Origin: an uncultured Planctomycetota bacterium
GTDB taxonomy: Bacteria; Planctomycetota; Phycisphaerae; UBA1845; JANYLN01
Reading direction: 5' to 3'
Length of the DNA stretch: 64,000 nt
NCBI GenBank assembly: GCA_963787325.1
Contig: CAWBCK010000001.1
Location: 156,924-220,923, forward strand
Both the position numbers and the translations under genes were made by a program. The notes under the pieces were generated by a model. That model was not told where the DNA came from and ran no database searches. It saw only the letters and a program-made list of their open reading frames with translations. How positions within the stretch are numbered: position 1 is the stretch's first letter; each line of letters starts with the position of its first letter. Positions 1,158 to 52,606 of this stretch are shown here, in pieces.

Positions 1158-3991
1158 TTACAGTCTGTGGATGCGGGTCCTGACGTCGAACTCTGCGTGG
1201 CTGTCGTTGTGAGCGAATCTGACAGCAACGCCGGCCGGAGCGTTGATCGCGACGTTGAGTGTCTTGCCGTCCACCTGCCAGGAGACCTCCAGCAGACCGC
1301 GGACGGTCGCGACCGTGCCTTTCGCATGGGAGAGACCGCAGAGCCGGGGACTGATCACGTAGCGGGTCCCCCCTGCTGCGACCTGGTGAATTCCGAGAAT
1401 CACGCGAGGCAGGAAGTGCAGCGGCGTGGCTGACCAGGCGTGACAGTGGCTGCGAGTCAGCGTGCCTTTGGGCCAGATCGGGCTGCACGGGAAGGTTTCC
1501 CACACAGTGGTGGCGCCGGCTTCGAGCATGGGCTGATAGTCCCGGATAATTGTCTGTACTATCCGCTCAGAATGTCCTGCCTTTTCGAGGGCTTCGAAGT
1601 AATACATCATGGCAAAGCCGCTGCCTATGCCGGCCACGCCGTCGGGCGGATCAAGCATGTTTCGCAGCGCTCCTGCCTGCTGGCGGGGGCCGGCGATGTC
1701 ATACAGGATCGACAGGAAACTTGTGTGCTGGCTGACATTGGGGCTTGGCGTGCCGTCGGCGCGGATGGCGTCGGGATATCCCTGGCGAGCATCATCCCAG
1801 TGGCTGTTGACGGCACGGCGGAGTTTGCGGCTGAAGTTGCGCAGCCAGACCCTGTCCTGGTCGCGCCCCAGGACGTCAGCGCACTGCGAAGCGGCTTCGA
1901 TCGCGCCGACCAGGAACATACTGTTGTGCAGCACGGTTGCGTGGTTCTGGTCGAGGGCCGCCCAGTCGAACATGTTCCAGAAGGGGGCGCTGAACAGGCC
2001 GGCATCGGTGCAATAGCCATGGGCATTGCGAAGGTTCTTCATAACGGCTGGCCAGCACCGGCGAAGAAACGGCTTGTCGCCCGAGTAGAAGTAGTAATCC
2101 CAGACGCTGATGCCCCACAGGAAGCTCCAGGCGGGCAGGAGGCAGTCCCAGCAGGAGGGAACCTGGCAGCCGACGAGCGGATAGCGTTCCAGCGATTGAG
2201 CCGCCAGGCGGATGCATCGTCTGGCGATATCGAGTGCCCCGAAGGTGGGGAAGGCGAATACCGCCTCGTTCCGGGCATCTCCCACCCACAGGGTCTGCTC
2301 GTAGACGGGGCAATCGGTGAAGGTGTCCTCCATACAGAGTTTCAGCGTGCGTGCGGAGATCTCCCAGATGCGATCGAGGTTCGCGTCGCTGCACGTGAAG
2401 CTGCCCGCGTAATTCACGGGGTAGGTGGATTCGATCAGCCTGAGGAGGCGGATCTTCACCGGGCTCGTCATGTTGCGCAGCGTGACGAATATGTACCGGC
2501 CGCCGCGACGGGTGAAGGACGTATATCGGTTGAGTCCCGCGCGGGTGACGAAACGCATGCCGTTGTGGTTGCCGCGAGTGTGCTGCACCGTCCCGTCCGG
2601 GCTGATGTACTCGACGCCGAAGAGATCGACCTGCACGCCTTCGTCCGCGAGCAGTTCGAAGTCGTAGTAGCCGCAGCTTCTGCTCGCCGAGATCGCAGAC
2701 CAGTTCGATGTCGCCGGTGCTGCTGGGTCTGATGACGGTCATTTCGGCGTTGTCGTGCATCAGGGCCGCAGGATTGTCGACGAGCAGCTTCGGCCTTTCC
2801 GATAACCTGGCGATTCTCGAACTGCCAGTGGGTGTGGCGGACGAACATCTTACTTGCCGGTATGCAGCGGGCCCGTTCGCCCAGATCCGCAAGGAAGGTC
2901 GGCACATCCACCACGTGCCGGCCAAGCTGCTCCGCGGCAAGGCGGTAGGATGAGACGGGGCTGCGTTCGGCGCCGGCATGCTTTGACCAGACAAGATCGT
3001 CCTCGACGCGGGCGAATTCGGGGAACGGAATGAAGCACCAGGGATTGTCAAACGACTTGTCCAGGGGGTTCTCGAGCGTCAGGCCCCTGGGCACATCGCG
3101 CAGATGGATCGCCTTCTCGCGGTAGTGATAGTTGATCTTTTCCACCGTTGCCAGCAGCAGGTGTCTGCCGGCTTGGAGTGTGACCTTGCCCGGCTTGATG
3201 TGCCGGCCGTCGATCGCGACGCGGAAGGCCCCTTCAATGCCGAACGTCGACCGTTTCCTGAGGTGCAGAACGGTGGCCATGCCTGCCGGGACGAGGGTGT
3301 TGGAGTTTGCTTCAATCAGGCCGGGATGAACCACCTGGCCCGAGGCCAGACAGAAGTACAGGTCGCTCGGGCGCCGCACGACGTTTGCTGCCAGCAAGGA
3401 CTTGAACTCAAGCGGACGGCGAGTCATCAGGGCCACATCGCGCGGATGCAGGTCGTGCCACGGGCCCTTGTCGGCCGCGAACAGCTCAGCCGCTGGACGG
3501 TAGCGGGGCTTGCCTTCCAAGGTCGCGTCGTAGTATTCGGATGGGCCCATCTGGGGGCTGATCTTGGCCGTGCCGGGCAGCATGGCTGCCAGCGTCGCCA
3601 CACGCCAGCGGCGGTCTGTCACGATAGTCTGGCTCGTGCCGCCAGCCAGTTGAACGTCGAGCTGGGCAATCAGCCCCGCTTGTTGGGGACGCTGGTGGAA
3701 GGTCCCGGTGCCGTAGTACATCGCGGCGATCTCGATCTCATTGGGGCCTGGCTGCAGATGCGTGGTGACATCGAGGAGGTCGTACTGGTAGTGCTCCGGC
3801 CAGGCGCGGCAGGGTCCGTCACCGACCCATTGGCTGTTGATCCGTAGCCGATAGAAGCTATCAGCCGTGATCCGCATGAGGGCCTGTCGAAACGGCTTGA
3901 GGGCGAACTGCCGTCGGGCCACTATAGTGTCATGGTACGTGTTATAGTCGGGCCGGGGGCACCAGATCCATTTGGCGGTAGAGGTAATCAT
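1158..3991 (-). CDS. alpha-L-rhamnosidase (GH78); frameshift near 2640-2700
   Basis: ORF 2468..4246 has the GH78 N-terminal domain (MITSTAKWIW...). ORF 1158..2636 has the catalytic (alpha/alpha)6 region with a DCPxxEQxxWxGD motif. The two ORFs overlap and are collinear in homology. Confidence 0.8.
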
Positions 3992-4315
3992 CGGGGCAGT
4001 ATAGCCAGGCGCCAGACGCCAGCCAACGGGCAGAGACCGCCGGCACAACAGAGAAGCGCACCGCATGAGTGCCGGAGAAGGTGGCTGATCTCCGCAGGCC
4101 GCGTAACACCCGCTCTGCGGAAGCCGCCATGGGTCCTTGCGGGAGGAATTGAAGCATGGCAACATGTTGATGTCGGGCGCGCTTTGAACCTTGCACGGAC
4201 GGGCCGGCTGTCCTTGTCGGCGGACGTCTGCGTATCGGGGATGCATGACGGATTGGGGGGCTCAGGAAGCACGGAACAACCGGCAACGGTTTCTTGAGCG
4301 GGCTTTTGGCAGGGC

Positions 4316-8846: not shown

Positions 8847-8899
8847 AGAGGTGAAGAGGTGACAAGGTGACAAGGTGACAAGGCCACGGGGTGACACGA
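8845..8899. repeat. tandem 8-mer repeat GA(A/C)(A/G)AGGT, about 5-6 units
   Basis: gaagaggt gaagaggt gacaaggt gacaaggt gacaaggc, directly downstream of the MMPL stop. Confidence 0.7.
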
Positions 8900-10756: not shown

Positions 10757-11440
10757 CTACTCCTGGCTGCCTCTGGCGACGTAGTCTTCGCTGCGGTGGC
10801 GGACGATCTCGCCCTGGCACATGTAGATGACGTCTTCGGCGATGTTCGTGGCGTGGTCGGCGATGCGCTCGAGGTGCCGGCTGACCGACAGCAGGTGGAT
10901 AAGGGCCTCCATCTGCTCGGGATGGCTGCGGATGCCGTCCTGGACCATCATGTAGGCCTCGCGGTTCATGGCGTCGACCTCATCGTCGGCGATGCACACT
11001 TCGTGGGCAAGCTTCGGGTCGAGATTGACCAGGGCGTCGAGGCTCTTGTGGAGCATCGCCTGGGCCTTCTCCGCCATCCGGGAGAAGTTGAACATGATCG
11101 GCAGCCGCTCCTGGGTCGCCAGGAACTGGGCCCGCTCGGCGACGTTGACAGCCAGGTCGGCGACGCGTTCCAGGTCGTTGTTGATCTTCAGTACGGCGAT
11201 GATCAGTCGCAGGTCGATGGCGACGGGTTGATGAAGGGCGAGGATCTTGAGGCATTCTTCCTCGACGTCCACCTCCTTCTTGTCGACCTCGTAGTCGCTG
11301 TCGATGACGCATTTGGCGAGGATGGGGTCCCGATTGTCCAGTGCGCGGACGGCACGCTGGACGCTCTCTTCGACCATCGCGCTGAGGGCGAGGATCATCT
11401 TCTTTAGCTTTTCAATTTCTTTCGTCAGATGGATCGACAT
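10757..11440 (-). CDS. phoU: phosphate signalling complex protein PhoU
   Basis: 227 aa with two PhoU repeats (DxxxD motifs). Sits downstream of pstB. Confidence 0.9.
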   Translation of the reverse strand: MSIHLTKEIEKLKKMILALSAMVEESVQRAVRALDNRDPILAKCVIDSDYEVDKKEVDVEEECLKILALHQPVAIDLRLIIAVLKINNDLERVADLAVNVAERAQFLATQERLPIMFNFSRMAEKAQAMLHKSLDALVNLDPKLAHEVCIADDEVDAMNREAYMMVQDGIRSHPEQMEALIHLLSVSRHLERIADHATNIAEDVIYMCQGEIVRHRSEDYVARGSQE

Positions 11441-11494
11441 CGTTCTTCCTCGCCAGCCACAGCACCGACCGTTACGCTGTTGTTCGGCACCATT

Positions 11495-12346
11495 CTACCC
11501 GAATCGGCCCGTGATGTAATCCTCCGTCTGTTTCTGGGTCGGGCGGGTGAAGATCTGCTTGGTCGGGCCGTATTCTACGATGTAACCCTGGTAGAAAAAT
11601 GCGGTGTAATCGGAGATTCGGGCGGCCTGCTGCATGTTGTGCGTGACGATGACGATGGTGTACTGGGTCTTGAGGATTTCGATCAGGTCCTCGATCTTGG
11701 CGGTGGCGACGGGGTCGATGGCGCTGGTCGGTTCATCCATGAGCAGCACCTCCGGGTCGACGGCGATGGCGCGGGCGATGCAGAGCCGCTGCTGCTGGCC
11801 GCCGGACAGCGCCGGGCCTGGGTGATCGAGTTTGTCCTTCACCTCGTCCCACAGGGCGGCGCGGGTGAGGGCGTGTTCGATGCGGTCGGCCAGTTCCGAA
11901 CGGCTCGTGCGGTAGTGCAGACGCAGGCCGTAGGCGACGTTTTCGAAGACGCTCATGGGGAACGGGGTGGGTTTCTGGAAGATCATGCCTACCCGGCGGC
12001 GCAGTTCGATCAGGTCGGTGCCGGGTTCGAGGATGTCCTCGCCGTCAAGAAGCACCTGGCCGGCGGCGCGGTGGCCGCGGTAGAGATCATAGATGCGGTT
12101 GTAGGTGCGCAGATGCGTGCTCTTTCCGCAGCCGGACGGCCCGATGACCGCCGTTACCCGGTTTTCGAGGACGTCGAGGCTGTTGTCGAAGAGGGCCTGA
12201 TGGGTGCCATAATAGAAGCTCAGGTTCCGCGCGGAGACCTTGACCTTCTGGTCCTCACGGGCCGAACTGGCGGCGGCACGGTCTTGTCTGGATTCTGGCG
12301 GAACCTGGGTCACGATCTTGATTTTCTCGGTAGCCATTATAGTCAT
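11495..12346 (-). CDS. pstB: phosphate ABC transporter ATP-binding protein PstB
   Basis: Walker [13 protein letters not shown] signature LSGGQQQRL, Walker [13 protein letters not shown]. Confidence 0.95.
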
Positions 12347-12350
12347 CTAC

Positions 12351-13196
12351 CTATTTCCTTGTACGCAGGAGCAGCCGGCTTGTCAGCATCACCGCCAGGA
12401 CAAACGCGGTGATCAGCAGGGACGCGCCCCAGGCCATCGCCTGCCAGTTGTCGTATGGGGACATCGCATACTGGAAGATGGTTACGGTGAGGTTCGCGGT
12501 AGGTTGGTTGAGCGAATCGACGGAGTACGGGCTGTTCAGGGCCGTAAACAGCAGTGGCGCGGTCTCGCCGGCCACGCGGGCGATGGCGAGGATCACGCCG
12601 GTAACCAGGCCGGCCCGGGCAGCGCGGAAGAGCACGCCCAGGGTGACTTTCCATCGCGGCGCGCCCAGGGCCAGGGCCGACTCGCGCAGGGTGTTGGGGA
12701 CCAGGGCGAGCATGTCCTCGCTGGTGCGGGCGACGACGGGCAGCATGAGGATCGCCAGGGCGATCGCCCCGGCATAGCCGCTGAAGTGGTGGAACGGCAC
12801 CACCAGGAACGTGTAGACGAAAACGCCGATGATAATCGACGGGGTGCCCATCAGCACGTTGGTAACGAAACGGACGGGCGAGGCGATCCAGCTGTGGGCG
12901 CCGAACTCCGCCAGGTAGACACCAGCAAGCATGCCGATGGGCACGCCGATTACGGTGGCCAGCGCGGTGATCAGCAGCGTGCCGACGATGGCACTGGACA
13001 GGCCGCCGCCCTTGACGCCCGGCGGAGGCGGCAGTTCGGTGAAGAAGTCCCAGTTGATTGCGGCTGCCCCGCGATGCACGACCGTGATGAGGATCCATGC
13101 CAGAAGCAGTAGCGCGAGGGCGGCGCACAGTGTCGAGATCACCTTGACCGACAGGTCGACGGTCTTGCGGGCGGCGTGAGAGCGGGGAGCCATCAT
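12351..13196 (-). CDS. pstA: phosphate ABC transporter permease PstA
   Basis: 6-TM permease with the EAA-like motif. The start abuts the pstC stop. Confidence 0.9.
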   Translation of the reverse strand: MMAPRSHAARKTVDLSVKVISTLCAALALLLLAWILITVVHRGAAAINWDFFTELPPPPGVKGGGLSSAIVGTLLITALATVIGVPIGMLAGVYLAEFGAHSWIASPVRFVTNVLMGTPSIIIGVFVYTFLVVPFHHFSGYAGAIALAILMLPVVARTSEDMLALVPNTLRESALALGAPRWKVTLGVLFRAARAGLVTGVILAIARVAGETAPLLFTALNSPYSVDSLNQPTANLTVTIFQYAMSPYDNWQAMAWGASLLITAFVLAVMLTSRLLLRTRK

Positions 13197-14113
13197 GCGC
13201 CACCTCCCATCGTCCGGCTGACCCGCTTGAGCCACACCTGGGTGAGCGCCTGGATGACAAAGGTCATCACGAAGAGAATCAGCCCCAGTTCGATCAGGCT
13301 GCTCAGGTACAGATCTTCGGATGCCTCGGCGAACTCATTGGCGAGGGTACTGGTGATGCTGTTGCCCGAGGCAAAGAGCGACAACGAGATCCTGTGGGCG
13401 TTGCCGATGACGAAGGTGATCGCCATCGTTTCGCCGATCGCCCGACCGAGTCCGAGGAGGCCGGCGCCGATGATCCCGCGGAAACCGTGGCGGATGGTCA
13501 CCTTGCGAGTGACTTCCCAGGTGGTGGCGCCCATGCCGTAGGCCGATTCCTTCAGGGCGGCGGGCACCATGTTGAACACGTCGCGGGCGACAGCCGTGAT
13601 GAACGGCAGGATCATGATCGCCAGCACAATGCCGGCGGTGAGCATGCCGAGGCCGTTGGCCGGGCCTTTGAAGAACGGCAGGAAGCCCAGGCCGATCTTG
13701 AAACCCGGGAAGACATAGCCGGCCAGAAACGGGGCGAACACGAACAGGCCCCACATGCCGTAGATGATGCTGGGGATGGCGGCGAGCAGTTCGACGCCGG
13801 TGCCGACGAAACTGCTGATGCGCGGCGGGGCGAGTTCGACGAGAAACAGGGCGGTGACCAGGCCGACGGGGACGGCCAGCAGCATGGCGATCGCCGTCGA
13901 GACGAGCGTGCCGTAGATACTGCTGGCGGCGCCGAATCGTTCACGCGCCGGGTTCCAGTCGGTTGAGACGAGGAAATGCCAGCCGAACGTCTTGATGGAC
14001 TGCCAGCTGTTGGTCAGCAGTCCAAAGAAGATGGCGGCGACCAGGCCGAGGACGAAGGCCGCGCATGCACCGGTGAGCAGTTTGAAGATCACGTCGCCGC
14101 TGACGAAGCGCAA
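13193..14113 (-). CDS. pstC: phosphate ABC transporter permease PstC
   Basis: 306 aa permease upstream of pstA in the pst operon. Confidence 0.9.
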   Translation of the reverse strand: MRFVSGDVIFKLLTGACAAFVLGLVAAIFFGLLTNSWQSIKTFGWHFLVSTDWNPARERFGAASSIYGTLVSTAIAMLLAVPVGLVTALFLVELAPPRISSFVGTGVELLAAIPSIIYGMWGLFVFAPFLAGYVFPGFKIGLGFLPFFKGPANGLGMLTAGIVLAIMILPFITAVARDVFNMVPAALKESAYGMGATTWEVTRKVTIRHGFRGIIGAGLLGLGRAIGETMAITFVIGNAHRISLSLFASGNSITSTLANEFAEASEDLYLSSLIELGLILFVMTFVIQALTQVWLKRVSRTMGGGA

Positions 14114-14248
14114 CGCGCGGCGGCGCCGAATGTCTCGAGGGGCAACGGCGTAGATGCTGTCTCCGGCGAACGAGGAGGCAGGGACGCCTGTTGCGACGTC
14201 CCTGCGGGGGTCTGGGTTCGCGAGTCTACGTGCATGCGGCTCCTATTA

Positions 14249-15313
14249 TCATGCTATTTCGATGCTGCCTTGGCGACGGGCCATACGGGCTTGCCGCCGG
14301 CTGTAATCTGTTTCTGCCACAGGCTCCTCGACCATGTTGACGACATTGTCGGGCAGCGGGACGTAGTCGAGTTTCTCAGCCATCTTGTCGCCGTGGCCGA
14401 AGCACCAGTCGAAGAAGGTGAACAGCGGCCCGGTGACCTTGGCGTTTCTCATCTGCTTGTGCACGAGGATGAAGGATGCCCCGGCGATCGGCCAGCTGCC
14501 GCTTCCCGGCTGGTTGACCAGGATGACGCGGAAGGCCGGAGCGTGGGCCCAGTCGGCGTTGGCGGCTGCCGCCTGGAAGGTCTTGATGGTCGGGGCGACG
14601 AACTTGCCGGCCCTGTTGCGGAGCTGGGTGTAGGCGAGTTTGTTCTGGAGGGCGTAGGCGTATTCGACATAGCCGATCGAGCCGGGCTGCTGCTTGACCA
14701 TGGCGGCGACGCCTTCGTTGCCCTTGGCCTGCGAGCCGGCGGGCCACTGGACGCTCTTGCCGGCGCCGACCTTGTTTTCCCATTCCTTCGAGACGCTGCT
14801 CAAAAAGTTCGTGTAGATCCAGGTGGTACCGGAGCCGTCCGCGCGGGCGACGACGCTGATGTCCTGGTCGGGCAGGTGCAGCGATCCGTTGATCTTCTTG
14901 ATGGCGGGGGCGTTCCACCTGGTGATCTTGCCGAGGTAGATGTCCGCGAGCAGTTCGTTGGTCAGTTTGAGCTGGCCTGGTTTCACGCCCTCGACGTTAA
15001 CGATCGGCACGACGCCGCCAACGATCATCGGAAACTGGGTCAGGCCGGCCTTGTCGAGCTCCTTGGCGGTCAGCGGGGCGTCGGACGCGCCGAAGTCCAC
15101 CGTGCCCATCTTGATCTGGGTAATGCCGCCGCCGGAGCCGATCGACTGGTAGTTGAGTTTCATGCCGGTGAGCTTGTGGTAGGCGTTGGCCCATTGGGAA
15201 TAAATCGGGTACGGGAAGGTTCGCCTGCGCCGTTGACCGTGACGTCCTGGTACTGGGCCATTGCGGTTGCTGAGACGGTCAGTGCGACGACTGCGGCTAA
15301 CATTCGCTTCATC
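14249..15313 (-). CDS. pstS: phosphate-binding protein PstS; frameshift near 15250
   Basis: ORF 14249..15163 carries the PstS core. The N-terminus with signal peptide MKRMLAAVVALTVSATAMA is at 15313. An alternate frame gives TFPYPIYSQWANAYHKLTG, joining to MKLNYQSIGSGGG. An AAGGAGAG RBS is present. Confidence 0.85.
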   Translation of the reverse strand, partial: DEANVSRSRRTDRLSNRNGPVPGRHGQRRRRTFPYPIYSQWANAYHKLTGMKLNYQSIGSGGGITQIKMGTVDFGASDAPLTAKELDKAGLTQFPMIVGGVVPIVNVEGVKPGQLKLTNELLADIYLGKITRWNAPAIKKINGSLHLPDQDISVVARADGSGTTWIYTNFLSSVSKEWENKVGAGKSVQWPAGSQAKGNEGVAAMVKQQPGSIGYVEYAYALQNKLAYTQLRNRAGKFVAPTIKTFQAAAANADWAHAPAFRVILVNQPGSGSWPIAGASFILVHKQMRNAKVTGPLFTFFDWCFGHGDKMAEKLDYVPLPDNVVNMVEEPVAETDYSRRQARMARRQGSIEIA

Positions 15314-15371
15314 GATTCTCTCTCCTTGCCTGGGTTAATGTATCCTCTCCTTCACCTAATATGCTAGGTGG

Positions 15372-15392
15372 GGTGTGTTAGAAATGGGTTAA
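15372..15392 (-). promoter_or_regulatory. candidate Pho box upstream of pstS: tTAACcc-attt-cTAACac (two [CT]TAAC half-sites at 11-bp phase), with a CATATT -10 about 11 bp downstream
   Basis: Gene-strand sequence is ttaacccatttctaacacacc. The same architecture occurs upstream of phoB and of the DUF47-pit operon. Confidence 0.5.
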
Positions 15393-15439
15393 TGCGAGAT
15401 TAATAGGGGGTCAGAAATGATAGAGATAATTGCCAGGGG

Positions 15440-17050
15440 CTAGGAGACCGTCTGAGTAAACGCCCAAAGCCCCAGTTCTCTTCGGTTTTTGGGGTACTCG
15501 GCCGTCTTACTTGTTGCTATTGCGCCGGGGTTCGGGGCCGGCGAGGCAGAAACTCCCGTTTCAGGCCGGTGCAGGCCCGTCTGACGCAATTGCCGATGGC
15601 TGTTTCAGCCGGCTGACCATAGTTTCCTCAGATTGCAGGCCATACAGACCAGACGCCACTCGCTACGCATCCGCTCCATGCCGTTCAACAAAAACTGCCG
15701 GAAGCCCAACCCTCGCTTGATCCAGCCGAAGATCGGTTCGACGATCCATTTCCGCTGGGCATACGTTTCCCGCCCGCGCTTCGTTCGCAACTTGCGGGCC
15801 ATCCGCTCCTTCGTCGTCAGCCCCGCCGGCGGCCGACCTCGCGGACTGGCTGGCATCCTTTCGCCATGCTTGAGCCGGCCCGTGGCGATGTACGCATCCA
15901 GAAGGTTCCGCTCGGCCCACTGCACGTTCTGCTCACTGAAGTAGCCGCTGTCCGAAGATATCTTCCCAATCCGATGCCCTCGCCCCACATTCGTGCGAGC
16001 CTGTTGGGCCATCGGCTGGAACTGTTGCTTGTCGTTCGCCTCGTTCGTCACATCCGCCGCCACGATGATCTGGTGTTGGCGATCCACCACCGCCTGCGCG
16101 TTGCCGCACTGGTCGAACCCCTTGTTGCTGACCTTCATGATTTTCGTCGTCGGATCCGTGAAGTTGTACTGGGCCTTCGCGGGCGGTACCGCCTTTTCCG
16201 GCTTGCTCCGACGGCCACCCTTAGGCTTGTCGCCTGGCTTGTCAGGCTCTTCTTCCTGACGCTTGCATTCCTCTTCGGCGGCAGCCTTGGCCTGTGCTTC
16301 CAGCGCTTCGCGCCTCCCGGATCTTCGCCAGGCGGCTCTGCCGCCGGGCCAGGGCCTCCGGCAGTTCGTCCCCGCGACGATCCACGCCGTAGGCCCGATC
16401 TTCCGCCTCATCCGCAGATTTGGCCTGCGACAGCAACTGACGGATCTCCTTGCGCAACCGGGCCTCCTCCTCTTTCATCCTTCCGTAACTCATCGCCTTG
16501 TGTCGCGAGGCATTCGCCCGGATCTTCGTGCCATCCAATGCCACGTGCCCCAGCTTCACCAGCCCCGCCTGCTGGCACAGCCGCAGCACCTCTACGAACA
16601 GCCCTTCCAGTTCTGTCAGGTGCTGCTTGCGAAAGTCGCTGATCGTCCGGAAGTCCGGCACATCCTCCTGCACGATCACCCGCCAGGCCGCATCTCGCTG
16701 ACACCGCTGCATGATTCGTCGCGAACTGAATACGCCCTGCGTGTAACTGTACAGCAGCAGCGTGGTCATCATCCGCGGGTGGTACGGCGGATAGCCGCGC
16801 TGCTCTCGCTCGTACTTGCCGAAAATGGCCGACAGATCCAGTTCCTTGACCACGTCGAGCACGAAAAAGACAAGGTCGTTTTCCGGCAGCCACTCTCGCG
16901 GCGATGGCGGCAATAGCCAACTTTGATCCGGATTCCAGGGGCGGTAGGTCTTACTCATCCTTGAGCCTCGATCGGAAAGACTTATCCCTTGCCTGACCCA
17001 CCCATTATAACATGTCTGTCAACTGTTACTCGGACAGTCTCCTAGGGGTT
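15440..17050 (-). mobile_element. IS1182/IS5-family insertion sequence (~1.6 kb) with imperfect terminal inverted repeats CTAGGAGAC(C/T)GTC(T/C)GAGTAA
   Basis: Left end 15440..15462 is ctaggagaccgtctgagtaaacg. The reverse complement of the right end 17027..17050 is ctaggagactgtccgagtaacag. Flanks are GGGG/GGGT, a possible 3-4 bp target-site duplication (TSD). Confidence 0.75.
15605..16958 (-). CDS. IS1182/IS5-family DDE transposase (N-terminal DUF772/InsH-like + DDE domain); frame break near 16310-16330
   Basis: ORF 16242..16958 has the N-terminal domain (MSKTYRPWNPDQSWLLPPS...). ORF 15605..16411 has the Lys/Glu-rich linker and DDE core (...VVDRQHQIIVAADVTNEANDKQQ...). The fragments overlap and are collinear. 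Confidence 0.8.
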
Positions 17051-17090: not shown

Positions 17091-18894
17091 TCAGGCCTGC
17101 GGTTCCTGTGGTCGTGTAACCTTGGGGTGGGCAGGCAGGTGGATGTAGAAGGTGCTGCCCTGGTCAGGGATGCTCTCCACGCCGACCCGGCCGGCGTGGG
17201 CCTGGGCAATGTGCTTGACGATGGCCAGCCCGAGGCCGGTGCCCCCTAATGCGCGGCTGCGGCTCTTGTCGACGCGGTAGAAACGTTCGAAGATCCGCGG
17301 CAGATGCTCCTTAGGGATACCGGCACCCTCATCGCGGACGTAAAGGGTGATCTCGTCTTCGCTGCCCCTCGCGCCGACCTCGACAGTCTTGCCCGGTTCG
17401 CTGTATTTGATGGCGTTGTCGACGAGGTTGACGATGGCCTGTTCCAGCAGCGGGGCATTCACGTCGGCGTGCAGATCGGCATCGCAGACCAGTACCAGGG
17501 GGATGCTCCTGGCTTCAGCCTTGGGCTGGCAGTCCTTGAGGACGGCGGCCAGGACGCTGCGCAGGCAGACGTCTTCCAGCGGCACTGCTCGCCTTCGCGA
17601 TCCTGCTCGATCCTCGAGAGGCTCAGCAGGTCCTCGATGATGGCGTGCAGACGGTTGGACTGCTTGCTGATGATATTCAGGAAACGGTTGAGATCCTCGG
17701 GGCTATGCGGCTTGCCGTCCAAAAGCGTCTCGACGAATCCTTTGATCAACGTGATGGGTGTCTTCAACTCGTGCGAGACGTTGGCGACGAAATCGCGACG
17801 GATCGTCTCGAGGCGCTTGAGCTGGGTGACATCGTGCAGTACGACGACCGCGCCGATATCGTGCCCCTGGGCGTTGCGCAACGGCGCCGTGGACGTCGAG
17901 AAACTGCTCGGCAGGACTTTCGAGCACCACCTCGCTGCGGGCCGGGCCGTCACCTGCCAGCACGTCAGCCACGAATTGCTGCAAATCGGTATTGCGGACG
18001 ACCTCCTGGATGCTCCGGCCGAGACTCTTGTCCGGGTCGGCGCCAAGCATCCCGGCGGCCGAGGCGTTGAGGATGATCAGGTGCTCCTGGTCATCGACCG
18101 CCAGAACGCCATCCTGCATGCTCGACAGCAACGCCTCGAACTGGTTGCGCTGGTTGACGACGGTCGTCAGACGCGAGTCGAGCTGGGCCGCCATGTTGTT
18201 CATGGCGGTTGCCAGCAGACGAAGCTCCTCCGTCTCGGGCACGGGCAGGCGATGTTGCAGTTCGCCCCGGGCGAATGATTTTGCGCCGCGGGTGATTTCA
18301 TACAGCGATCGGCTGATCCGCCGGGAGACCGCCAGGCTGACTGCCGCGGCAAGCAGGCCGGCCAGCACGGCCGAGATGTAGAACCGCACCGAGATGCTGT
18401 GGATGACCCGGTTGATGGCGGTCAGTGGCATGCTGGCGCGGACGGCGCCGACAATATGGCCGTTCTCGTAGAGCGGTACGGCGACGTACATCATCTGCTG
18501 GCTGAGCGTGGGGCTCCATCGGCTGGATATGCCGCGCCGGCCCTGAAAGGCCTGCTTGAGTTCGGGGCGGTCGGCGTGGTTGGCCATCTTCGCCGGTTCT
18601 TCGTCGGAATCCCCGACGACCAGGCCGTCCGGCATGACGACTGTGATGCGGGCGGCGGCCTTGGAGGCGAGCAGGCGGGTCTGCGCGGCGATCTGCTCGG
18701 GGTGGCTGGCGGCGTGGGTGTCCTGGAGTCTGCTCGGCGACGAGTTGGGCCTTGGCCTGGAGGTCCGAGGCGACCTCGTTAAGGTGCAGCCGGCGCAGGG
18801 ACTGGGTGGCGTACCAACTGAGGGCCAGCAGGGCGATTATCGTGATCAGCAGATAAGGCGGATAGAGCTGCCAGAGCAGCCTTCTGCGTCTCAT
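17091..18894 (-). CDS. phoR: phosphate regulon sensor histidine kinase PhoR-like (TM-HAMP-PAS-HisKA-HATPase); at least 3 frameshifts (near 18735, 17885, 17585)
   Basis: Four collinear ORF pieces. The H-box is FVANVSHELKTPIT; the N-, G1- and G2-boxes sit in the last piece (NLVDNAIKYS, DEGAGIP, GGTGLGLAIVKHI). The start overlaps the phoB stop. Confidence 0.8.
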
Positions 18895-19584
18895 GCGCTT
18901 TCCTTGAACCTGTAACCTACGCCGCGAATCGTCTCGATGTACTCACCGCATCTACCCAGTTTACGCCGCAACGATACGATATGCACGTCGACGGACCGAT
19001 CGGTTACGGCCACGTCCTCGCCCTGGACGCCGTTGATGATCTGGTAGCGGGTGAAGACCCAGCCTGGCCGCCGAGCCAGCAGGTGCAGGATGCGGAATTC
19101 CGTGTGGGTCAGATCGACCGGGTTCTCGGCGGCGAGTACTTCGTGCCGGCCGGGATGGATGACCAGATCGTGAATCTTCAGCACACTCTTGTCGTTGGTG
19201 GGCTCGGCGGTCTTGCGCCGCAGGACGGCCTTGACGCGGGCCGAGAGGACGCGCGGGCTGAAGGGTTTGGTGACGTAATCGTCAGCGCCGAGCTCCAGGC
19301 CGGTAACGATATCAGGCTCCTCCCCCTTGGCGGTCAACATGATTACGGGGATCTGGCGTGTCTTGGGATCGGTCTTGAGGATCTTGCAGACCTCCAGGCC
19401 GTCGAGACCCGGCAGCATCAGGTCGAGGACAACGAGGTTGGGCGCTCTGGGTGCGGGCCTCCTTGAGGGCCTGCTCGCCGGTGGTCACACAGCGCGTTCG
19501 GTAGCCGTCCTTGGACAGGTTGTAGTTGAGCAGCTCGAGGATGTCCTCTTCATCATCTACGACCAGAATGTTCTCATTCGGCAT
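18891..19584 (-). CDS. phoB: OmpR/PhoB-family response regulator; frameshift near 19440
   Basis: The N-terminal piece has MPNENILVVDDEEDILELL... (REC, D-D-K). The C-terminal piece has the winged-helix domain (RKLGRCGEYIETIRGVGYRF). Confidence 0.85.
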
Positions 19585-19632
19585 GGTATCCGGGTCTCCA
19601 TGGGCCTGTTCCCCGTTCATTTTATATAGTGC

Positions 19633-19651
19633 ATGTTAACTTCATGTTAGG
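19633..19651 (-). promoter_or_regulatory. candidate Pho box upstream of phoB: cTAACATG-aagt-TAACATG (7-bp direct repeats at 11-bp periodicity), followed by a TATATA -10
   Basis: Gene-strand sequence is ctaacatgaagttaacatgcactatataaaatg. This is the classic Pho-box architecture (two 7-bp repeats plus a 4-bp spacer). Confidence 0.55.
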
Positions 19652-19700
19652 GGAATACAAGATATGCGCTAATGATCAGGTCGCGAAGGATTAACGGCGT

Positions 19701-19785
<85 letters not shown>

Positions 19786-20548: not shown

Positions 20549-20611
20549 GCCTGAATGGTTGGGGATTAGCGGGCCAGAGTCAATAATGCTTGTTTGCGAC
20601 AGTCGTTAACG

Positions 20612-20630
20612 GCTAACGATTTCCTAACAG
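20612..20630 (+). promoter_or_regulatory. candidate Pho box upstream of the DUF47-pit operon: gCTAACga-tttc-CTAACag, with TTGCATACT about 12 bp downstream
   Basis: Same [CT]TAAC half-site pair at 11-bp spacing as at phoB and pstS. Confidence 0.5.
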
Positions 20631-20704
20631 TCGGTGTCCTTGCATACTGCCGGCAGGGAACCCTAGAATCTCGGTCTCACACGGCACTAATGCGGAGCCA
20701 ACCA

Positions 20705-21329
20705 ATGCTGAACCTGCTGCCGAAGGACAAAGTCTTTTTCGATCTGTTCGAGGGCCTTGCCTCGCACGTGGTCTCGACGGCCGAGCATCTTCGCCGACTG
20801 GCGGAGAATTTCCCGGACATTGGCGATCACCTTCAGCGGATCCGCCAGGAGGAACACCAGGCCGACGACCTGGCCCACAAGGCACTCGACCGGCTGGACC
20901 GTACGTTCATTACGCCATTCGACCGCGAGGATATCCATACGCTCGTCGGCGAACTGGATGATATCGTCGACACCATCGACGCCCTGGCGAAGCGATTTCC
21001 GCTTATATCACATCAAGTGTCTGGAGCCTGGCTTCATCAAGCAGACGGAGGTGCTGGTGCAGGCGGCCACGGCGGTGCGCGAGGCGGTCTGCCGGCTGCG
21101 CAAGAGCCGCAAACTGTCGCAGCTGAGCGATCGGCTGATCGAGATCCATCGCCTGGAGAATATCGGCGATGAGAACAATCATGCCGCCATGTCGCGGCTC
21201 TTCGACGGGAGCAGCTCGCCGCTGGACGTCATGAAGTGGAAGGAACTCTACGACATGATCGAGACGGCGATCGACGGGTGCGAGGACGTGGGAAATACCC
21301 TTGAGCGAATCGTGCTCAAGAACGGGTAG
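20705..21329 (+). CDS. DUF47 / TIGR00153 PhoU-like protein (Pit accessory protein); frameshift near 21000
   Basis: MLNLLPKDKVFFDLFE... is the N-terminus. The C-terminus (...LENIGDENNHAAMSRLFDG...) lies in ORF 20757..21329. Canonical partner of PiT transporters. Confidence 0.75.
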
Positions 21330-21498: not shown

Positions 21499-22578
21499 AT
21501 GGTCCTGATCTTCTCGATCATCGTTGTTGCGCTGATTTTCGATTTCCTCAACGGATTTCACGACGCGGCCAATTCGATTGCGACGGTCGTCTCGACGCGG
21601 GTGCTGACGCCGGGGGCGGCGGTCAGTCTGGGCGGCGTTCTTCAACTTCGTCGCGGCGTTTCTGTTCGGGACGAAGGTGGCGGGAACGATCGGCAAAGGC
21701 CTGGTCAATCCGGCCCATATCGATATCTATGTCGTCCTGGGCGGGCTGGCCGGGGCGATCGTCTGGAACATCATCACGTGGCTGCTGGCCCTGCCGACGA
21801 GTTCGTCGCACGCGCTGGTCGGCGGCGTCGGCCGGCGCCGCACTGACCAAGGCCCTGGTGGCCAAGGCGGGCTCGACGTACTGATCTGGCAGGGATGGAT
21901 GGCCGGCTGGGGAGGATTGCTGCTGTTTATCTTCCTGTCGCCGATGATCGGCATGATCCTGGGTACATCAATATGACGGTGGTGGCGTGGATGTTCCGAC
22001 GATCTACGCCGAACAAGGTCGACGGGTGGTTCCGTCGGCTCCAGCTGGCCTCGGCGGCGGTCTACAGCCTGGGGCACGGCGGCAACGACGCCCAGAAGAC
22101 CATGGGAATCATCGTGATGCTGCTGGCGGCGGCGGGCCTGAACGCCTGGTCGGTGCCGGACCCGCACAGCCCGCTGAACATGATCAACATATTCGGCCAC
22201 ACGCACACCGTGGCCTGGTGGATCATCCTTTCCTGTAACGGTGCCATCGCGCTGGGCACGATGTTCGGCGGCTGGCGGATCGTCAAAACGATGGGCTCGG
22301 GGATTACCCGGCTGCAGCCGGTCGGCGGCTTCTGCGCCGAGACGGCGGCTGCGGCGACGATCTGGGGGACGACCTTCCTGGGGATTCCGATCTCGACGAC
22401 GCATGCGATCACCGGCTCGATCCTGGGCGTAGGGACGACCAAGGGCGTTCGGAGCGTGCGGTGGATCTGGGGCGAACGGATCGTGGTAGCATGGATCCTG
22501 ACGTTGCCCTGTTCGGCGTTCATGGCATCGCTGGTGTACCTGGCGATGCACTACGGTATTGAACCCCTGATGAAGTAA
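21499..22578 (+). CDS. PiT-family inorganic phosphate transporter; about 3 frameshifts; start uncertain (possibly near 21437)
   Basis: Duplicated PiT signature: FDFLNGFHDAANSIATVVSTRVL, then later GHGGNDAQKTMGII and ...ISTTHAITGSILGVG. The pieces 21301, 21677 and 21895 are collinear. Confidence 0.75.
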
Positions 22579-24903: not shown

Positions 24904-25967
24904 TTATTTTAGCGGCAGGTCGACCGCTTTGTGCTCCTTGGCGCTCTTGTAGATGGCCAGGATGATCTCCACGCCCTTGCGGGCCTCCCGTCCGTCGATC
25001 AGCGGCCGGCGGTTGTTGTCCAGCGCATCGAGGAACTCGGCGATATTGCGGCGGTGCCCCTCGGCCGACAGCCCGGCGCCGGGGCTCGACGCGCCGGTGG
25101 ACACTGCCGGGAAGGCGACCTTCTCCTGGCGGATCCGCTCGTCCTCCGGCGTCTCCTTCTTGAACTGCCAGAAGAAGAACGCGCTGTCCGCCATCGCGAC
25201 GCTGCCCTCCTCGCCGGACACCTCGACAATGCGGAAGTGGCCCGGCCACATGCTGGTCGTGCACGCGATAGTGCCCAGCGCGCCGTTGGCGAATTCGACC
25301 GCCGCCGACCCGGTGTCTTCCACCTCGATCCGCTTATGGGCCAGTGTGGCCGCGAATGCCTGCACGCTTTTTACCGGACCCATCAGCCATTGAAGCATAT
25401 CGATGGTGTGAATCCCCTGGTTCATCAGGCGCCCCCGCCGTCATACTGCATCGTCCCTTTCCAGCCGCCCTCGTCGTAATACGACTGATCCCGCCACCAG
25501 GGCCCATACGCCATCCCGAATGTCAGGCGGCCGAACCGTCCCCCGGCCACGGCCGCCTTAAACGCCTGCGCCGTTTCGGTGAACCGGCCGTTAAAAAACC
25601 CGCCGATCTTCGTGCCGGCCTTGTCGTGCGCTTCAAGGATGCGGTCGATCCGGTCGAGCGTGATCTCGATCGGTTTTTCAATGATGACATGCTTGCCAGC
25701 CGCCGCAGCATCGACGGCCGGCTCCATATGCGCCCCGCTGGGCGTGGCGATCGTGACGATATCAACGTTCGGATCGTTGATCAGGTCCTTATAGTCCCGG
25801 TACATCGTGGTGCCGGGGAATTTCTCGCTGAATTTGGCCACGCTCTTGTCAGACCGCGCACAGCCAGCCACAAGTTTGGCGTTGGGCAATTGCTGGATCG
25901 CCTGGGCATGGAACTCCCCGATAAAGCCGGCGCCGATGACGCCGATACCGTATGTCTTGGGCATTTT
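24904..25967 (-). CDS. Gfo/Idh/MocA-family NAD(P)-dependent oxidoreductase; frameshift at about 25425
   Basis: N-terminal Rossmann GVIGAGFIGEFHA, then ...YDGGGA|LMNQGIHTIDM...; two abutting ORFs. Confidence 0.8.
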
Positions 25968-32858: not shown

Positions 32859-32869
32859 ATCGCGGCCGA

Positions 32870-32997
32870 ACAACCCGGGCTGACGCCTCGGGCTTCAAGA
32901 CAACCTGACAACCCGGGCTGACGCCTCGGGCTTCAAGACAACCTAACAACCCGGGCTGACGCCTCGGGCTTTCAAACAACGCAACCACCTGGGCTGG
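32870..32997. repeat. tandem ~38-bp repeat, 3 units (acaacccgggctgacgcctcgggcttcaagacaacct) plus a partial fourth unit
   Basis: Units at 32870-32907, 32908-32945 and 32946-32986 (third unit degenerate). Confidence 0.8.
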
Positions 32998-36227: not shown

Positions 36228-37605
36228 ATGCTGAAAACTGATCAGATCCTTTCGACCATCCAGATGCTTCAGGCCGAGAACCTCGACCTGCGCACGGTAA
36301 CCATGGGCATCAACATCAACGACTGCGCCGGGCCGGACATCAACCTGGTCTGCCGGAAGGTCCGAGAGAAGATCCGGGCCAAGGCGTGCCGGCTGGTCGA
36401 GGTGTGCGACCGCGTCGGACGCAAGTACGGCGTGCCCGTGACAAACAAGCGACTGGCGATCTCGCCGGTGAGCGATCTGCTGGCCGGACACGGGCCGCAG
36501 GCAGGGCTTCAGATCGCCACGGCGCTGGATACGACGGTTGCGGAACTGGGGATCGACCTGGTCGGTGGTTTCACGGCGCTGGTGCAGAAAGGGATTACCT
36601 CGGCCGATGCGACGTTGCTGGAGTCGCTGCCTGCCGTGCTGGCGAAGACGAAGCGGGTCTGCGCTTCGGTGAACGTGGCAACGACGCGGGCGGGGATCAA
36701 CATGGACGCGGTCCGGCAGCTGGGGCAACTGCTGCCGCGTATCGCCCAGGCGACGGCTGACCAGAACGGCTTCGGTGCGGCGAAACTCGTGATCTTCGCC
36801 AACATCCCGGAAGACAACCCCTTCATGGCCGGCGGCGTACCTGGGGGCGGGCGAGCCGGAAGTCGTTATCAACGTCGGCGTCAGCGGCCCGGGCGTGGTC
36901 TCCTCGGCGCTTCGCCGTAAGATCGAAACGAGCAGGCACAAGCTCACTCTTTTGGAGCTGGCCGAAGAGATCAAGATCACGGCATTCCGCGTGACACGGG
37001 CAGGCGAGCTGATCGGCCGGGAGGTCGCAGCCGAACTGGGCGTGCCGTTCGGCATCGTCGATCTGTCGCTGGCGCCGACGCCGAAGATCGGCGACAGCAT
37101 CGGCGAGATCCTGAAGGTCCTGGGCATCGAGGCGATCGGTGCGCCGGGCTCGACGGCCGCCGTGGCGATGCTCAACGACGCGGTCAAAAAGGGCGGCACG
37201 TTCGCCAGCCAGTCGGTCGGCGGGCTCTCCGGGGCGTTCATCCCGGTAGCCGAGGACGCGGCCCTGGCGGAGGCGGTGCAGGCCGGGCAACTGACGCTCG
37301 AAAAACTCGAGGCGATGACCTGCGTGTGCAGCGTGGGCCTGGACATGGTGGTCATCCCCGGCGATACCCCGCCGGCAACGATCGCGGCACTGATCGCCGA
37401 CGAGATGGCGATCGGCGTCATCAACTCCAAAACGACGGCGGCCCGGCTGATCCCGGCACCCGGCAAGAAGGCCGGCGACGTCGTCGAGTTCGGTGGGCTT
37501 TTCGGCGCGGCGCCGGTCATCGAAGTGAGGAATCCGGGAACTTCCTCCGGGTTCATCGACTTCGGCGGCCGGATTCCTCCGCCGATCCATAGCCTCCGTA
37601 ACTGA
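36228..37605 (+). CDS. UPF0210 / DUF711 (PFL-like) protein; frameshift near 36860
   Basis: [30 protein letters not shown]... is the conserved UPF0210 N-terminus. The C-terminal half is collinear in ORF 36895..37605. Confidence 0.8.
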
Positions 37606-37694: not shown

Positions 37695-38113
37695 CGCCTA
37701 AAAAACATCTTCGCGTACGCCAGTCTTTGGGCTGCGACCAAAGACGACATCCTGCGGCGCGAACGGAGCAGCGAAGGATCGAACCGGCGCCCCTGCCCAC
37801 GGCGCTACCAGCGGGACATCGGTAACGTTCGGTCGCAAGGCGTGTCAGGACGGCTGCCACATTGGCACAGGCGCCACCGGCCATCAATGCAGGGTCTGTC
37901 ACTGCGGCAGAATCCAAATCGAACGGGTCGCGAATACGGCTGCTGTAAGTCATGTTGGCGTAGCCAGTTACGGCTGTTCGAAAAATGTCTTCGCTCTGGC
38001 ATTCCGTTTGCTTACCAAGGCTGTTGAAAGGCGCGGATGTTGTCTATCTTGACAGGCAGTGCAGCCTTTATGACTCGGCGTAACAGCGTTCGGCTAAAAA
38101 GGAGGTAGCGTCA

Positions 38114-39826
<1,713 letters not shown>

Positions 39827-39920
39827 CCACCTTCCAGTGCTGCGTCCCGAGTACTGAGTGCTGGGTTAAGTACATAAAAACAAGATAAGGCTCTTTAAGA
39901 GAAACGGGAGAAAAACAGAT

Positions 39921-40235
39921 ATGGCAACTGCCAGTGCGAAGGTCAAGACGATTCGGCCCCTGGATGATCGGCTTGTTGTGAAACCCTCGGAGCCGGAGGA
40001 GAAGACGGCTGGAGGGATCGTGCTGCCGGATACCGCGAAGGAAAAGCCGCAGCGCGGCGAGGTGACGGCGACGGGGCCGGGTAAGCTTCTCGACAGCGGC
40101 AGCCGGGCGGCGATGCTGGTGAAAGTCGGCGACCTGGTGATGTACGGCAAGTACAGCGGCACGGAGATCGAAGTGGCAGGAGAGAAGCTGGTGATCCTGC
40201 GCGAGAGCGACGTGCTGGCGGTGGTCGAGAAGTAA
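39921..40235 (+). CDS. groS: co-chaperonin GroES
   Basis: 104 aa; mobile loop EEKTAGGIVLPD. Confidence 0.95.
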   Translation: MATASAKVKTIRPLDDRLVVKPSEPEEKTAGGIVLPDTAKEKPQRGEVTATGPGKLLDSGSRAAMLVKVGDLVMYGKYSGTEIEVAGEKLVILRESDVLAVVEK

Positions 40236-40330
40236 GAGGTCCTCACGAGTTGGACCGCCCGGCGCTGCGGCGATCGCGTGATGCGGGTCTGTCGATGCCG
40301 GGGCGGTTGACGCGATGTACATACAGATGA

Positions 40331-41977
<1,647 letters not shown>

Positions 41978-41989
41978 TAAAGCATGCCA

Positions 41990-42019
41990 GGGGCGGACGC
42001 GGCCAAACGTGTCCGCCCC
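41990..42019 (+). terminator. GC-rich hairpin downstream of groEL2 (9-bp stem ggggcggac/gtccgcccc, 12-nt loop), no U-tract
   Basis: Perfect inverted repeat 27 nt after the stop codon. Confidence 0.4.
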
Positions 42020-42060
42020 TGTGCGCAGTCTCCGGGTGTAGCGGTTTTGACGGGAAAGCC

Positions 42061-42066
42061 TATAAT
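42061..42066 (+). promoter_or_regulatory. perfect TATAAT -10 hexamer about 80 bp upstream of dnaJ
   Basis: ...gttttgacgggaaagccTATAATcagcc; the -35 is not convincing. Confidence 0.3.
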
Positions 42067-42148
42067 CAGCCGTTTGAGGTTTGCCGGTGGTGAGCAGTGC
42101 GTGGCGCTCGCCCGGCGAGCGGCTCGCACTTAGCGCAGAAGTGAGTCA

Positions 42149-43354
42149 GTGGCAACGAAACGAGATTACTACGAAGTTCTGGGCGTGGCACGCTCGGCTG
42201 GGCCGGACCAGATCAAGAAGGCATACCGGCAGGCTGCGCTGAAATATCATCCCGACCGCAATCGCAACGATCCCGAGGCCGAGAAGAAGTTCAAGGAAGC
42301 CGCTGAGGCCTACGAGGTCCTGTCCGACGAACACAAGCGGGCCATCTACGACAAGTATGGTCATGCGGGTCTGAGCGGGCAGGGGGTGCATGACTTTTCG
42401 TCGATGAACCCGTCCGACATCTTTTCGATGTTCGGGCTGGACAGCATCTTCGACGCGTTCTTCGGCGGTCGGGGCGGCCGGCCTCGCCAGCACCGCGGCG
42501 CGGACCTGGAAGTCGGCGTCGAACTCGAACTGGAAGAGGTGATCACCGGCGCGGAACGGGCGGTCGAGTTCGACCGGGCCGATTTCTGCGATCATTGCGG
42601 CGGCCGAGGAGCAGAGCCGGGCACACCGCTGCAGACGTGTCAGACGTGCGGTGGCTATGGGCAGGTGGAGCAGGCGGCTGGTTTCGGTGGGCTGCTGGGA
42701 CGGATCGTAACGACGTGTCCGAACTGTCGCGGGACGGGCAAGATCGTCAAGGAACGCTGCCGGACGTGCAGCGGCCGCGGCATGAAGATGCAGCATCGGC
42801 AACTGCAGGTGCGTTTGCCGGCGGGCATCCATGACGGCCAGAGCGTTCGGATCCGGGGCGAGGGTGAGCCGAGCGAGGACGGCGGGCCGCGAGGGGATGT
42901 CTACTGCCGAGTGCGTGTCAAGCCGCATCCGTTCCTGCAACGGCATAACAATGACGTGGTGCTTCGCCTGCCGATCAGCTTCACGCAGGCGACGTTAGGG
43001 GCGGAACTTGAGGTGCCGACGCTTCGGGGCAAGTCGAAACTGACGATCCCGCATGGCACGCAGTACGGCGAGACGTTCCGCATGAAGGGCGAGGGCCTGC
43101 CCGATCTGCACAGCAAACGGGTAGGTGACCAGATCGCCCAGGTCATCGTCGAACTGCCTCGAAAACTCACCAAACAACAGGAAAGATTACTTAGGGAATT
43201 CGCCGAGACCGAGGATGACCAGGTCATGCCGGCAGCCAAGGGCGTCATGGACAGGATCAAGGATATCTTCAGCGGCACGAGCCATGAGCATCACGGTCAT
43301 CACGGCACGGACGAATCGGCCGAGCGGCAGGACCTGGACCGGTCAGACGTCTAG
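42149..43354 (+). CDS. dnaJ: molecular chaperone DnaJ
   Basis: J-domain with HPD, G/F-rich region, 4x CxxCxGxG zinc finger, C-terminal domains. Confidence 0.95.
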
Positions 43355-43374
43355 CGAAGGCGCAGGAGAGTGTA

Positions 43375-52411: not shown

Positions 52412-52606
52412 CTTCGCATCTCCAGGGAGAGAGCCCCAGGACTTCACGGCCATGACCGGTGACGGTTGCTGACGCCAGCCGCCGCGCTCGCCGCAAAACA
52501 AGGTCTTACGCGAATGCCGATGGGTCTGCAAGGGAATGGCCGCCTCTCGGGGTAATCGGACGAATCGGAACATCCGCCCTCGGGCCGGTGGCCATTGTGG
52601 ATGTGC

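Follow-up and report, generated by a model that had tools for sequence, protein, structure and literature searches.

Paired TAAC repeats with an 11-bp phase are located upstream of pstS, phoB and the DUF47(pitR)-pit pair in a 64-kb window (the whole stretch of DNA analyzed here; G+C content 62.7%) from a metagenome-assembled genome (MAG) of the Phycisphaerae (Planctomycetota). The affiliation follows from the tyrosyl-tRNA synthetase of the window, whose named homologues all belong to Phycisphaerae or Planctomycetes. The TAAC repeats are very probably Pho boxes, i.e. the predicted operators of the PhoB/PhoR pair encoded alongside. [quoted passage not shown] As far as can be judged from the sequence, the pstS and phoB promoters show the layout of a classic PhoB-activated promoter. 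The boxes are of a known class and mechanistically ordinary, since motifs of this type have been described in cyanobacteria and Bacillus and are spread over many phyla. They are found in a phylum that had no earlier description of such sites: the searchable literature yielded no account of a Pho box in Planctomycetota, and a survey did not detect PhoPR in some members of the phylum (PMC13170248).

The features of the locus are compiled in Table 1. The genes phoB and phoR constitute a cognate pair that adjoins pstSCAB-phoU, and the domain architecture of PhoR is identical in six metagenomic relatives (L081, L082, L163-L166), which were reached via PstS and PhoB homologues and whose PhoB proteins are 74-89% identical. 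An insertion sequence, bordered by 20-nt terminal inverted repeats (15440-15459 and 17026-17045), separates the phoR stop codon from the pstS Pho boxes and ends ~37 bp 5' of the third box unit; it is absent from L081, L082, L163, and L164. Besides the genes listed, no other phosphate-related or Pho-regulon genes were found within the 64-kb window. Rfam and tRNA scans of the window did not return any hit, so no RNA element accounts for the TAAC sites.

Table 1. Coordinates of the phosphate locus and of predicted regulatory elements in the 64-kb window.
Feature	Position	Strand	Details
pstC, pstA, pstB, phoU	10757..14242	-	3' of pstS, co-oriented; TIGR02135 PhoU 201 bits
pstS, phosphate-binding protein	14249..15312	-	NF008171 409 bits, TIGR00975 392 bits; frameshift near 15225
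Lone second CATTAACCCA copy, pstS leader	15331..15340	-	19 nt upstream of ATG
Probable pstS -10, TAGCAT	15361..15366	-	starts 14 nt after start of proximal TAAC
Predicted pstS Pho box, two in-phase units	15373..15392	-	TTAACCC-atttc-TAACACAC; 24.4 bits
pstS site	15377-15392	-	TTAACCCATTTCTAAC
Third, weaker pstS unit, TTAAT	15399..15403	-	exactly 11 bp upstream of distal TAAC
IS5/IS1182-like insertion sequence	15440-17045		minus strand; DUF772 + DDE_Tnp_1 transposase, frameshifted
phoR, sensor kinase	17091..18836	-	Cache-HAMP-PAS ... HATPase_c; frameshift near 17702
phoB, response regulator	18891..19585	-	recognition helix DRSVDVHIVSLRRKL; frameshift near 19440
Probable phoB -10, TAAAAT	19619..19624	-	starts 14 nt after start of proximal TAAC
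Predicted phoB Pho box	19631..19650	-	CTAACATG-aagt-TAACATGC; exact 7-nt direct repeat, period 11; 20.1 bits
phoB site	19635-19650	-	CTAACATGAAGTTAAC
Heptamer GGGAGAC tandem array	19701-19767		9.6 copies, 85% matches; 19-nt variant runs on to 19782
Methyltransferase gene	20548 to 19796	-	between phoB and divergent DUF47
DUF47-pit site	20613-20628	+	CTAACGATTTCCTAAC
DUF47-pit Pho-box-like site	20613..20632	+	CTAACGA-tttc-CTAACAGTC; 21.1 bits
Candidate DUF47-pit promoter, TTGCAT-N18-TAGAAT	20640..20669	+	downstream of box
DUF47 / PhoU_div, PitR-like accessory protein	20705..21329	+	PF01865; frameshift near 21035
pit, PHO4 family low-affinity phosphate transporter	21499..22578	+	PF01384; several frameshifts
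Frameshift examples	~15225, ~17702, ~19440, ~21035, 21499-22578, 2468-2738, 25425-25440, 36793-36920		

Frameshifts split at least 10 functionally unrelated genes in the window, including phoB, phoR, pstS, DUF47, and pit. If those in the phosphate genes were real, the system would be decaying. Since the same kind of split affects unrelated genes of the window and also genes in L163, indel errors of long-read metagenome assembly are the likeliest cause, rather than pseudogenization. Elsewhere in the window, a hybrid kinase/receiver is encoded at 52509-54996, and a chaperone cluster, groEL-groES-groEL-dnaJ-grpE, at 38084-43929. The latter comprises two full GroEL paralogues, the first of which has a GGM tail encoded by a 9-nt GGCGGCATG repeat (39743-39820). 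Further repeats are an intergenic 38-nt tandem repeat 3' of an SPFH/Band_7 gene (32869-32996; 3.4 copies, 91% matches) and a 16-nt repeat, AGGTGAAAAGGTGACA, after an MMPL gene (8849-8896; ~2.5 copies).

An earlier note on this DNA had described pairs of [CT]TAAC half-sites 11 bp apart in the promoters of three phosphate genes. All three pairs were recovered, at positions differing by ~1 nt from those given before, and the assignment of the genes to pstS, phoB, and DUF47-pit (start positions 15312, 19585, and 20705) proved correct. The pattern YTAAC-N6-YTAAC is found exactly three times when both strands of the 64 kb are searched (0.05 expected from dinucleotide shuffles), and TAAC-N7-TAAC yields the same three matches only (both strands; 0.17 expected). 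None of 100 dinucleotide shuffles reaches three matches, and all three genuine ones lie upstream of phosphate genes. A 20-position weight matrix, trained solely on 11 sites of relatives with the window sites excluded, ranks the three window sites at the top in the order pstS, DUF47-pit, phoB (scores in Table 1), and the fourth-best match in the window reaches 12.9 bits. For matches of at least 20 bits, 0.006 are expected per window (mean of 500 block shuffles). Pho boxes are characterized by two or more direct repeats with 11-bp periodicity (7-8 conserved plus 3-4 variable positions) and by a placement before phosphate-starvation genes, among them pstS and the operon of the regulator itself; all three sites show such repeats as TAAC-N7-TAAC, and the placement agrees as well.

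The individual boxes differ in their number of recognizable units. At the phase of the third pstS unit, the relatives show ATTCACG/CTCACG. The exact repeat at phoB, TAACATG-N4-TAACATG, occupies 19632-19649, and a third unit is weak there (CTTGTAT, 5.1 bits). The second motif copy reported nearer to pstS does exist, although the two copies of TGGGTTAATG (15331-15340 versus 15385-15394) are 54 bp apart and not 62. Two copies of CATTAACCCA are found where 0.02 are expected; the second one was rejected as an extra operator, as it is not matched by a half-site 11 bp away and is not shared by the relatives. The GGGAGAC array is situated 50-120 bp 5' of the phoB box, in the space that separates the phoB promoter from the stop codon of the methyltransferase gene. 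It was considered as a control element of phoB and is treated as unrelated because it is not present in relatives.

Comparison with the relatives supports both the boxes and their distance to the -10 hexamer. The pst genes adjoin phoBR in five of the six relatives; in L166, none is adjacent. The full phoBR-pstSCAB-phoU order is found in L081, L082, L163, and L164 (with downstream glyoxalase and Ldh_2 genes common to L081 and L163), and L165 stops inside the gene after phoR, presumed to be pstS. The pstS box is kept in L081, L082, L163, L164, and L165, and the phoB box in L081, L082, and L163-L166. Intergenic DNA has diverged among these genomes, yet the sequence yTAACnnnnnTCyTAACA is retained in all six pstS promoters (window plus five relatives). 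In each of these six, the start of the proximal TAAC is followed at a distance of exactly 14 nt by a TAnnAT hexamer (TAGCAT, TACTAT, TAACAT, TAGCAT, TATCAT, and TAGCAT). At phoB, the unit pair is kept in all genomes, with a distal unit reading TAAT in L081 and TAGC in L164, and the proximal TAAC precedes TATAAT, TATACT, TAAGAT or TAAAAT by 13-14 nt in the window and all relatives except L166. Taken over the pstS and phoB promoters, the distance from the proximal TAAC to TAnnnT is 13-14 nt in 12 of 13 cases; the phoB promoter of L166, which has no clear TAnnnT at 13-14 nt, is ambiguous. The combined pattern TAAY-N7-TAAC-N10-TANNNT is restricted to the pstS and phoB promoters within the window (0.00 expected). 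A named Planctomycetota MAG outside the training set (L024, JBBIVY010000071) shows the same arrangement: a single match in its 18.8 kb reaches 15 bits or more. This match scores 20.7 bits (11676-11695, CTAATGATTTCCTAACACGG), precedes a second pstS-pstC-pstA set, and lies 14 nt from a TAGCCT hexamer, a spacing as in the pstS promoters.

In view of the spacing conserved in the relatives and of the combined pattern unique to pstS and phoB in the window, the -10 elements are probably TAGCAT for pstS and TAAAAT for phoB. The hexamers proposed before (TATATA for phoB, CATATT for pstS, CATACT for DUF47-pit) are all present in the sequence, but the relatives point to a shift of 3-4 nt at phoB and pstS. 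The accompanying claim that a -35 is not evident holds for these two promoters, where a consensus scan found no sigma-70 promoter with both hexamers, and is doubtful at DUF47-pit, where a candidate promoter with a -35-like element follows the box. The spacers between the TTAAC units and the -10 amount to ~9 and ~20 nt instead of 16-18 nt, and consequently neither unit can serve as a -35. At pstS and phoB, the box thus sits over or in place of the -35, with a constant spacing to the -10; this is not the case at DUF47-pit. The proposed dependence of the three promoters on PhoB was therefore upheld in part: the sites are very probably Pho boxes, located at the -35 position of pstS and phoB, but DUF47-pit lacks the geometry of an activator site.

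The regulator encoded next to these sites scores best with the NCBIfam model TIGR02154 (PhoB) at 256 bits, below the curated cut-off of 296, so its identity as PhoB rests on the best match plus the gene context. The E. coli PhoB-DNA complex 1GXP is the best PDB match of the DNA-binding domain. For the receiver domain, B. subtilis PhoP (1MVO, 147 bits) scores higher than E. coli PhoB (1B00, 110 bits), and many close homologues are labelled 'alkaline phosphatase synthesis response regulator PhoP' by JGI. The recognition helices, DRSVDVHIVSLRRKL in the window PhoB and DRTVDVHIRRLRKAL in E. coli PhoB, differ in that VS is found where E. coli PhoB has RR, and a half-site of the TTAAC class fits this helix.

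The association between helix and box extends far beyond the relatives. A profile search with a PstS alignment retrieved homologues from many phyla, none more than 65% identical, from which 80 species-representative loci were taken. In these loci, the 25.5 kb 5' of pstS contain 16 copies of TAAC-N7-TAAC and the other 2.55 Mb contain 13, corresponding to a 123-fold enrichment in the 320 nt upstream of pstS. Loci with the TAAC box are named Planctomycetota, Deltaproteobacteria, Oligoflexia, Fibrobacteres, Latescibacterota, and Caldisericaceae; alpha-, beta-, and gammaproteobacterial loci have TGTCA-N6-TGTCA instead. The TTAAC-type box is no peculiarity of cyanobacteria or Firmicutes and occurs in at least six named lineages outside the Alpha-, Beta-, and Gammaproteobacteria. 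The box type goes along with the helix of the regulator: the TAAC box accompanies a PhoB helix ending V(S/G)LR, and the TGTCA box accompanies xRLR. In counts uncorrected for phylogeny, 15 loci with an x[S/G/A]LR helix comprise 11 with TAAC-N7-TAAC and none with TGTCA-N6-TGTCA upstream of pstS or phoB, and 28 loci with an xRLR helix comprise one with the former and 15 with the latter pattern, likewise uncorrected. The association, counted without correction for phylogeny, spans several phyla.

It may be asked whether a regulator other than the adjacent PhoB uses these sites. Direct repeats with a 10-11 bp phase are the targets of many winged-helix response regulators, so the operators could belong to a different member of the OmpR/PhoB family, or to another factor recognizing 11-bp-phased TTAAC, such as a CtrA-like protein; the CtrA consensus of alphaproteobacteria, TTAA-N7-TTAAC, resembles the window motif. 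The score of the adjacent regulator under the TIGR02154 cut-off and the further hybrid kinase/receiver encoded in the window would also agree with such a reading. It is nevertheless improbable, for the boxes are inherited together with phoB, phoR, and pstS across phyla, change in step with the recognition helix of the neighboring regulator, and occupy an autoregulatory position before phoB, which is typical of Pho systems. A CtrA box in particular was rejected on account of the 132 bits that the CtrA model assigns to the adjacent regulator (cut-off 350), the Phycisphaerae host, and the location of the sites at phosphate genes. That the matches are chance AT-rich promoter sequence or the remnant of a -35 element, with no regulator involved, is effectively excluded. 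TTAACA is just one position apart from TTGACA and intergenic DNA is more AT-rich than the G+C average of the window suggests, but no unit is placed 16-18 nt from the -10, three matches stand against the 0.006-0.05 expected, diverged relatives keep exactly the same phase and spacing, and the 123-fold enrichment upstream of pstS is added to this.

With the Pho boxes as the preferred reading, a course of events can be proposed from the architecture and from established knowledge of activators of the PhoB family. Upon phosphate limitation, PhoR would phosphorylate PhoB, dimers of which would bind head-to-tail to the 11-bp-phased units with the consensus yTAACnn-N4-yTAACAy. At pstS and phoB, the units would span ~-38 to -21 if the conserved TAnnnT is the -10, with a third unit at pstS. 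Bound PhoB is supposed to substitute for the absent -35 and to recruit RNA polymerase, which would lead to induction of the high-affinity Pst transporter (pstSCAB-phoU) and to autoregulation of phoBR. The DUF47(pitR)-pit site is probably bound by PhoB as well; the candidate promoter that follows it has a -35-like element of its own.

The geometry of this third site differs from that of the others. An additional, out-of-phase TTAAC (20606-20610) is located beside the box, and CATACT (20643-20648) starts 18 nt after the proximal TAAC, versus 13-14 nt at pstS and phoB. The same hexamer overlaps the -35-like TTGCAT of the candidate promoter, which scores below the threshold of the consensus scan; similar TTGCA...TACAAT elements are found in L083 and L084. 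As a result of the 18-nt geometry and of the TTGCAT-N18-TAGAAT element 3' of the box, it is not safe to regard DUF47-pit as a PhoB-activated promoter devoid of a -35, and activation and repression are both possible. Binding of PhoB to the predicted site, judged from its sequence, appears likely, with less assurance than applies to the Pho-box assignment as a whole. The site is poorly conserved: among metagenomic relatives of DUF47, an exact TAAC-N7-TAAC was found in four of 80 and in none of the six closest. In the latter group, a strong box (23 bits) exists only in L087, with an activator-like spacing of 13 nt to CACAAT, and L083, L084, and L088 exhibit weak CTTAGCG/CTTAAC-like units downstream of TACAAT (5-9 bits, coding strand). 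In L087, DUF47 directly follows phoR, and CTTAxxx units in an 11-bp phase form an array before it (3900-4000), which ends in the 23-bit box ~39 nt before the annotated ATG; this suggests a leader that is very short or absent.

A repressive function of the DUF47-pit box is considered possible rather than probable: under phosphate scarcity, Pit and the PitR-like partner of this low-affinity transporter would be turned off. Under the same cautious estimate, the box could instead serve the divergent methyltransferase gene, which has its intergenic region in common with DUF47. A precedent for repression is known from Sinorhizobium (S. meliloti), whose orfA(DUF47)-pit operon is repressed on phosphate starvation via a Pho box that immediately precedes the start codon (PMC3131613). 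Both systems combine a DUF47-pit pair with an upstream Pho-box-like element; the box is near the start codon in S. meliloti and farther upstream in the window. The deviating distance to CATACT, the candidate promoter downstream of the box, and the units found 3' of the TACAAT -10 in L083, L084, and L088 would be in line with repression. However, the window box precedes the candidate promoter instead of covering it, unlike a classic roadblock, the units of these three relatives score a mere 5-9 bits, and the strong box of L087 precedes DUF47 with the spacing of an activator site. For S. aureus, it was described that PitR, a PhoU-like partner of Pit, modulates PhoPR activity (PMC13170248).

For Phycisphaerae and Planctomycetota, the weight matrix together with the fixed distance of 13-14 nt to the -10 provides a usable Pho-box model. 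Pho regulons thereby become predictable in metagenome-assembled genomes, although the mechanism is not new. A more far-reaching suggestion, put forward tentatively and with some doubt, is that two adjacent residues of the recognition helix (RR versus V-S/G) cause the switch between TGTCA and TAAC across phyla, and that PhoB also directly controls the PitR-like regulator and Pit. If true, this would amount to a transferable specificity code, by which the Pho regulons of uncultured phyla could be predicted from the PhoB sequence alone, and a feedback loop between low-affinity uptake and Pho signaling would be closed.

The E. coli Pho box consists of two CTGTCAT repeats with a 4-bp A/T spacer, 10 bp upstream of the -10. 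The similarity in architecture noticed before is confirmed, as the window sites also show two 7-bp direct repeats with a 4-bp spacer and a replaced -35, and autoregulation of phoBR and induction of pstS would presumably be shared, too. The half-site is different, as likewise stated before: neither CTGTCAT nor TGTCA-N6-TGTCA was found at the three window sites, which read TAAC(A) in place of TGTCA. Furthermore, the E. coli box is 10 nt away from the -10, and the window box ends ~7 nt from it.

In B. subtilis, the core site of PhoP is reportedly made up of TT(A/T/C)ACA direct repeats with a spacer of 5±2, a definition said to go back to Liu and Hulett in 1998. A hexamer of this reported consensus, TTAACA, is essentially the window half-site cTTAACAc, and the phasing of ~11 bp, the location on the coding strand, and the overlap with the -35 region of activated promoters are, as far as reported, shared as well. 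PhoP typically binds four repeats (two dimers), which is a difference from the window. For the DNA-binding domain of this PhoP, a structure is not known to us.

The cyanobacterial SphR/PhoB box is composed of tandem 8-bp CTTAACCT repeats with a 3-bp linker, e.g. TTTAACCTttcGTTAACCT (PMC1906773), and such boxes are found upstream of pst operons (PMC1906773, PMC11126600). In Synechocystis, mutation of any TTAA core lowered or abolished PhoB binding in electrophoretic mobility shift assays (EMSA) (PMC11126600). Compared by eye, units of the window and of the relatives fit CTTAACCT with a period of 11, the window units ATTAACCC, TCTAACAC, and CCTAACAT among them, and the half-site also fits the hexamer reported for Bacillus. 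Three in-phase units are present at pstS, the third (TTAAT) being weaker. At least three repeats are reportedly needed in Synechocystis, whereas phoB of the window has two strong units; the proximal unit in the window prefers TAACA(C/T), unlike the cyanobacterial box, and the host is a member of the Phycisphaerae and not a cyanobacterium. The notion of a lineage-specific PhoB motif is not supported in light of the match to the SphR box (PMC1906773, PMC11126600) and the occurrence of the same box in six named lineages. By its sequence, the window half-site is to be placed in the TTAAC/TTAACA class of cyanobacterial SphR and B. subtilis PhoP, and not in the enterobacterial CTGTCAT class.
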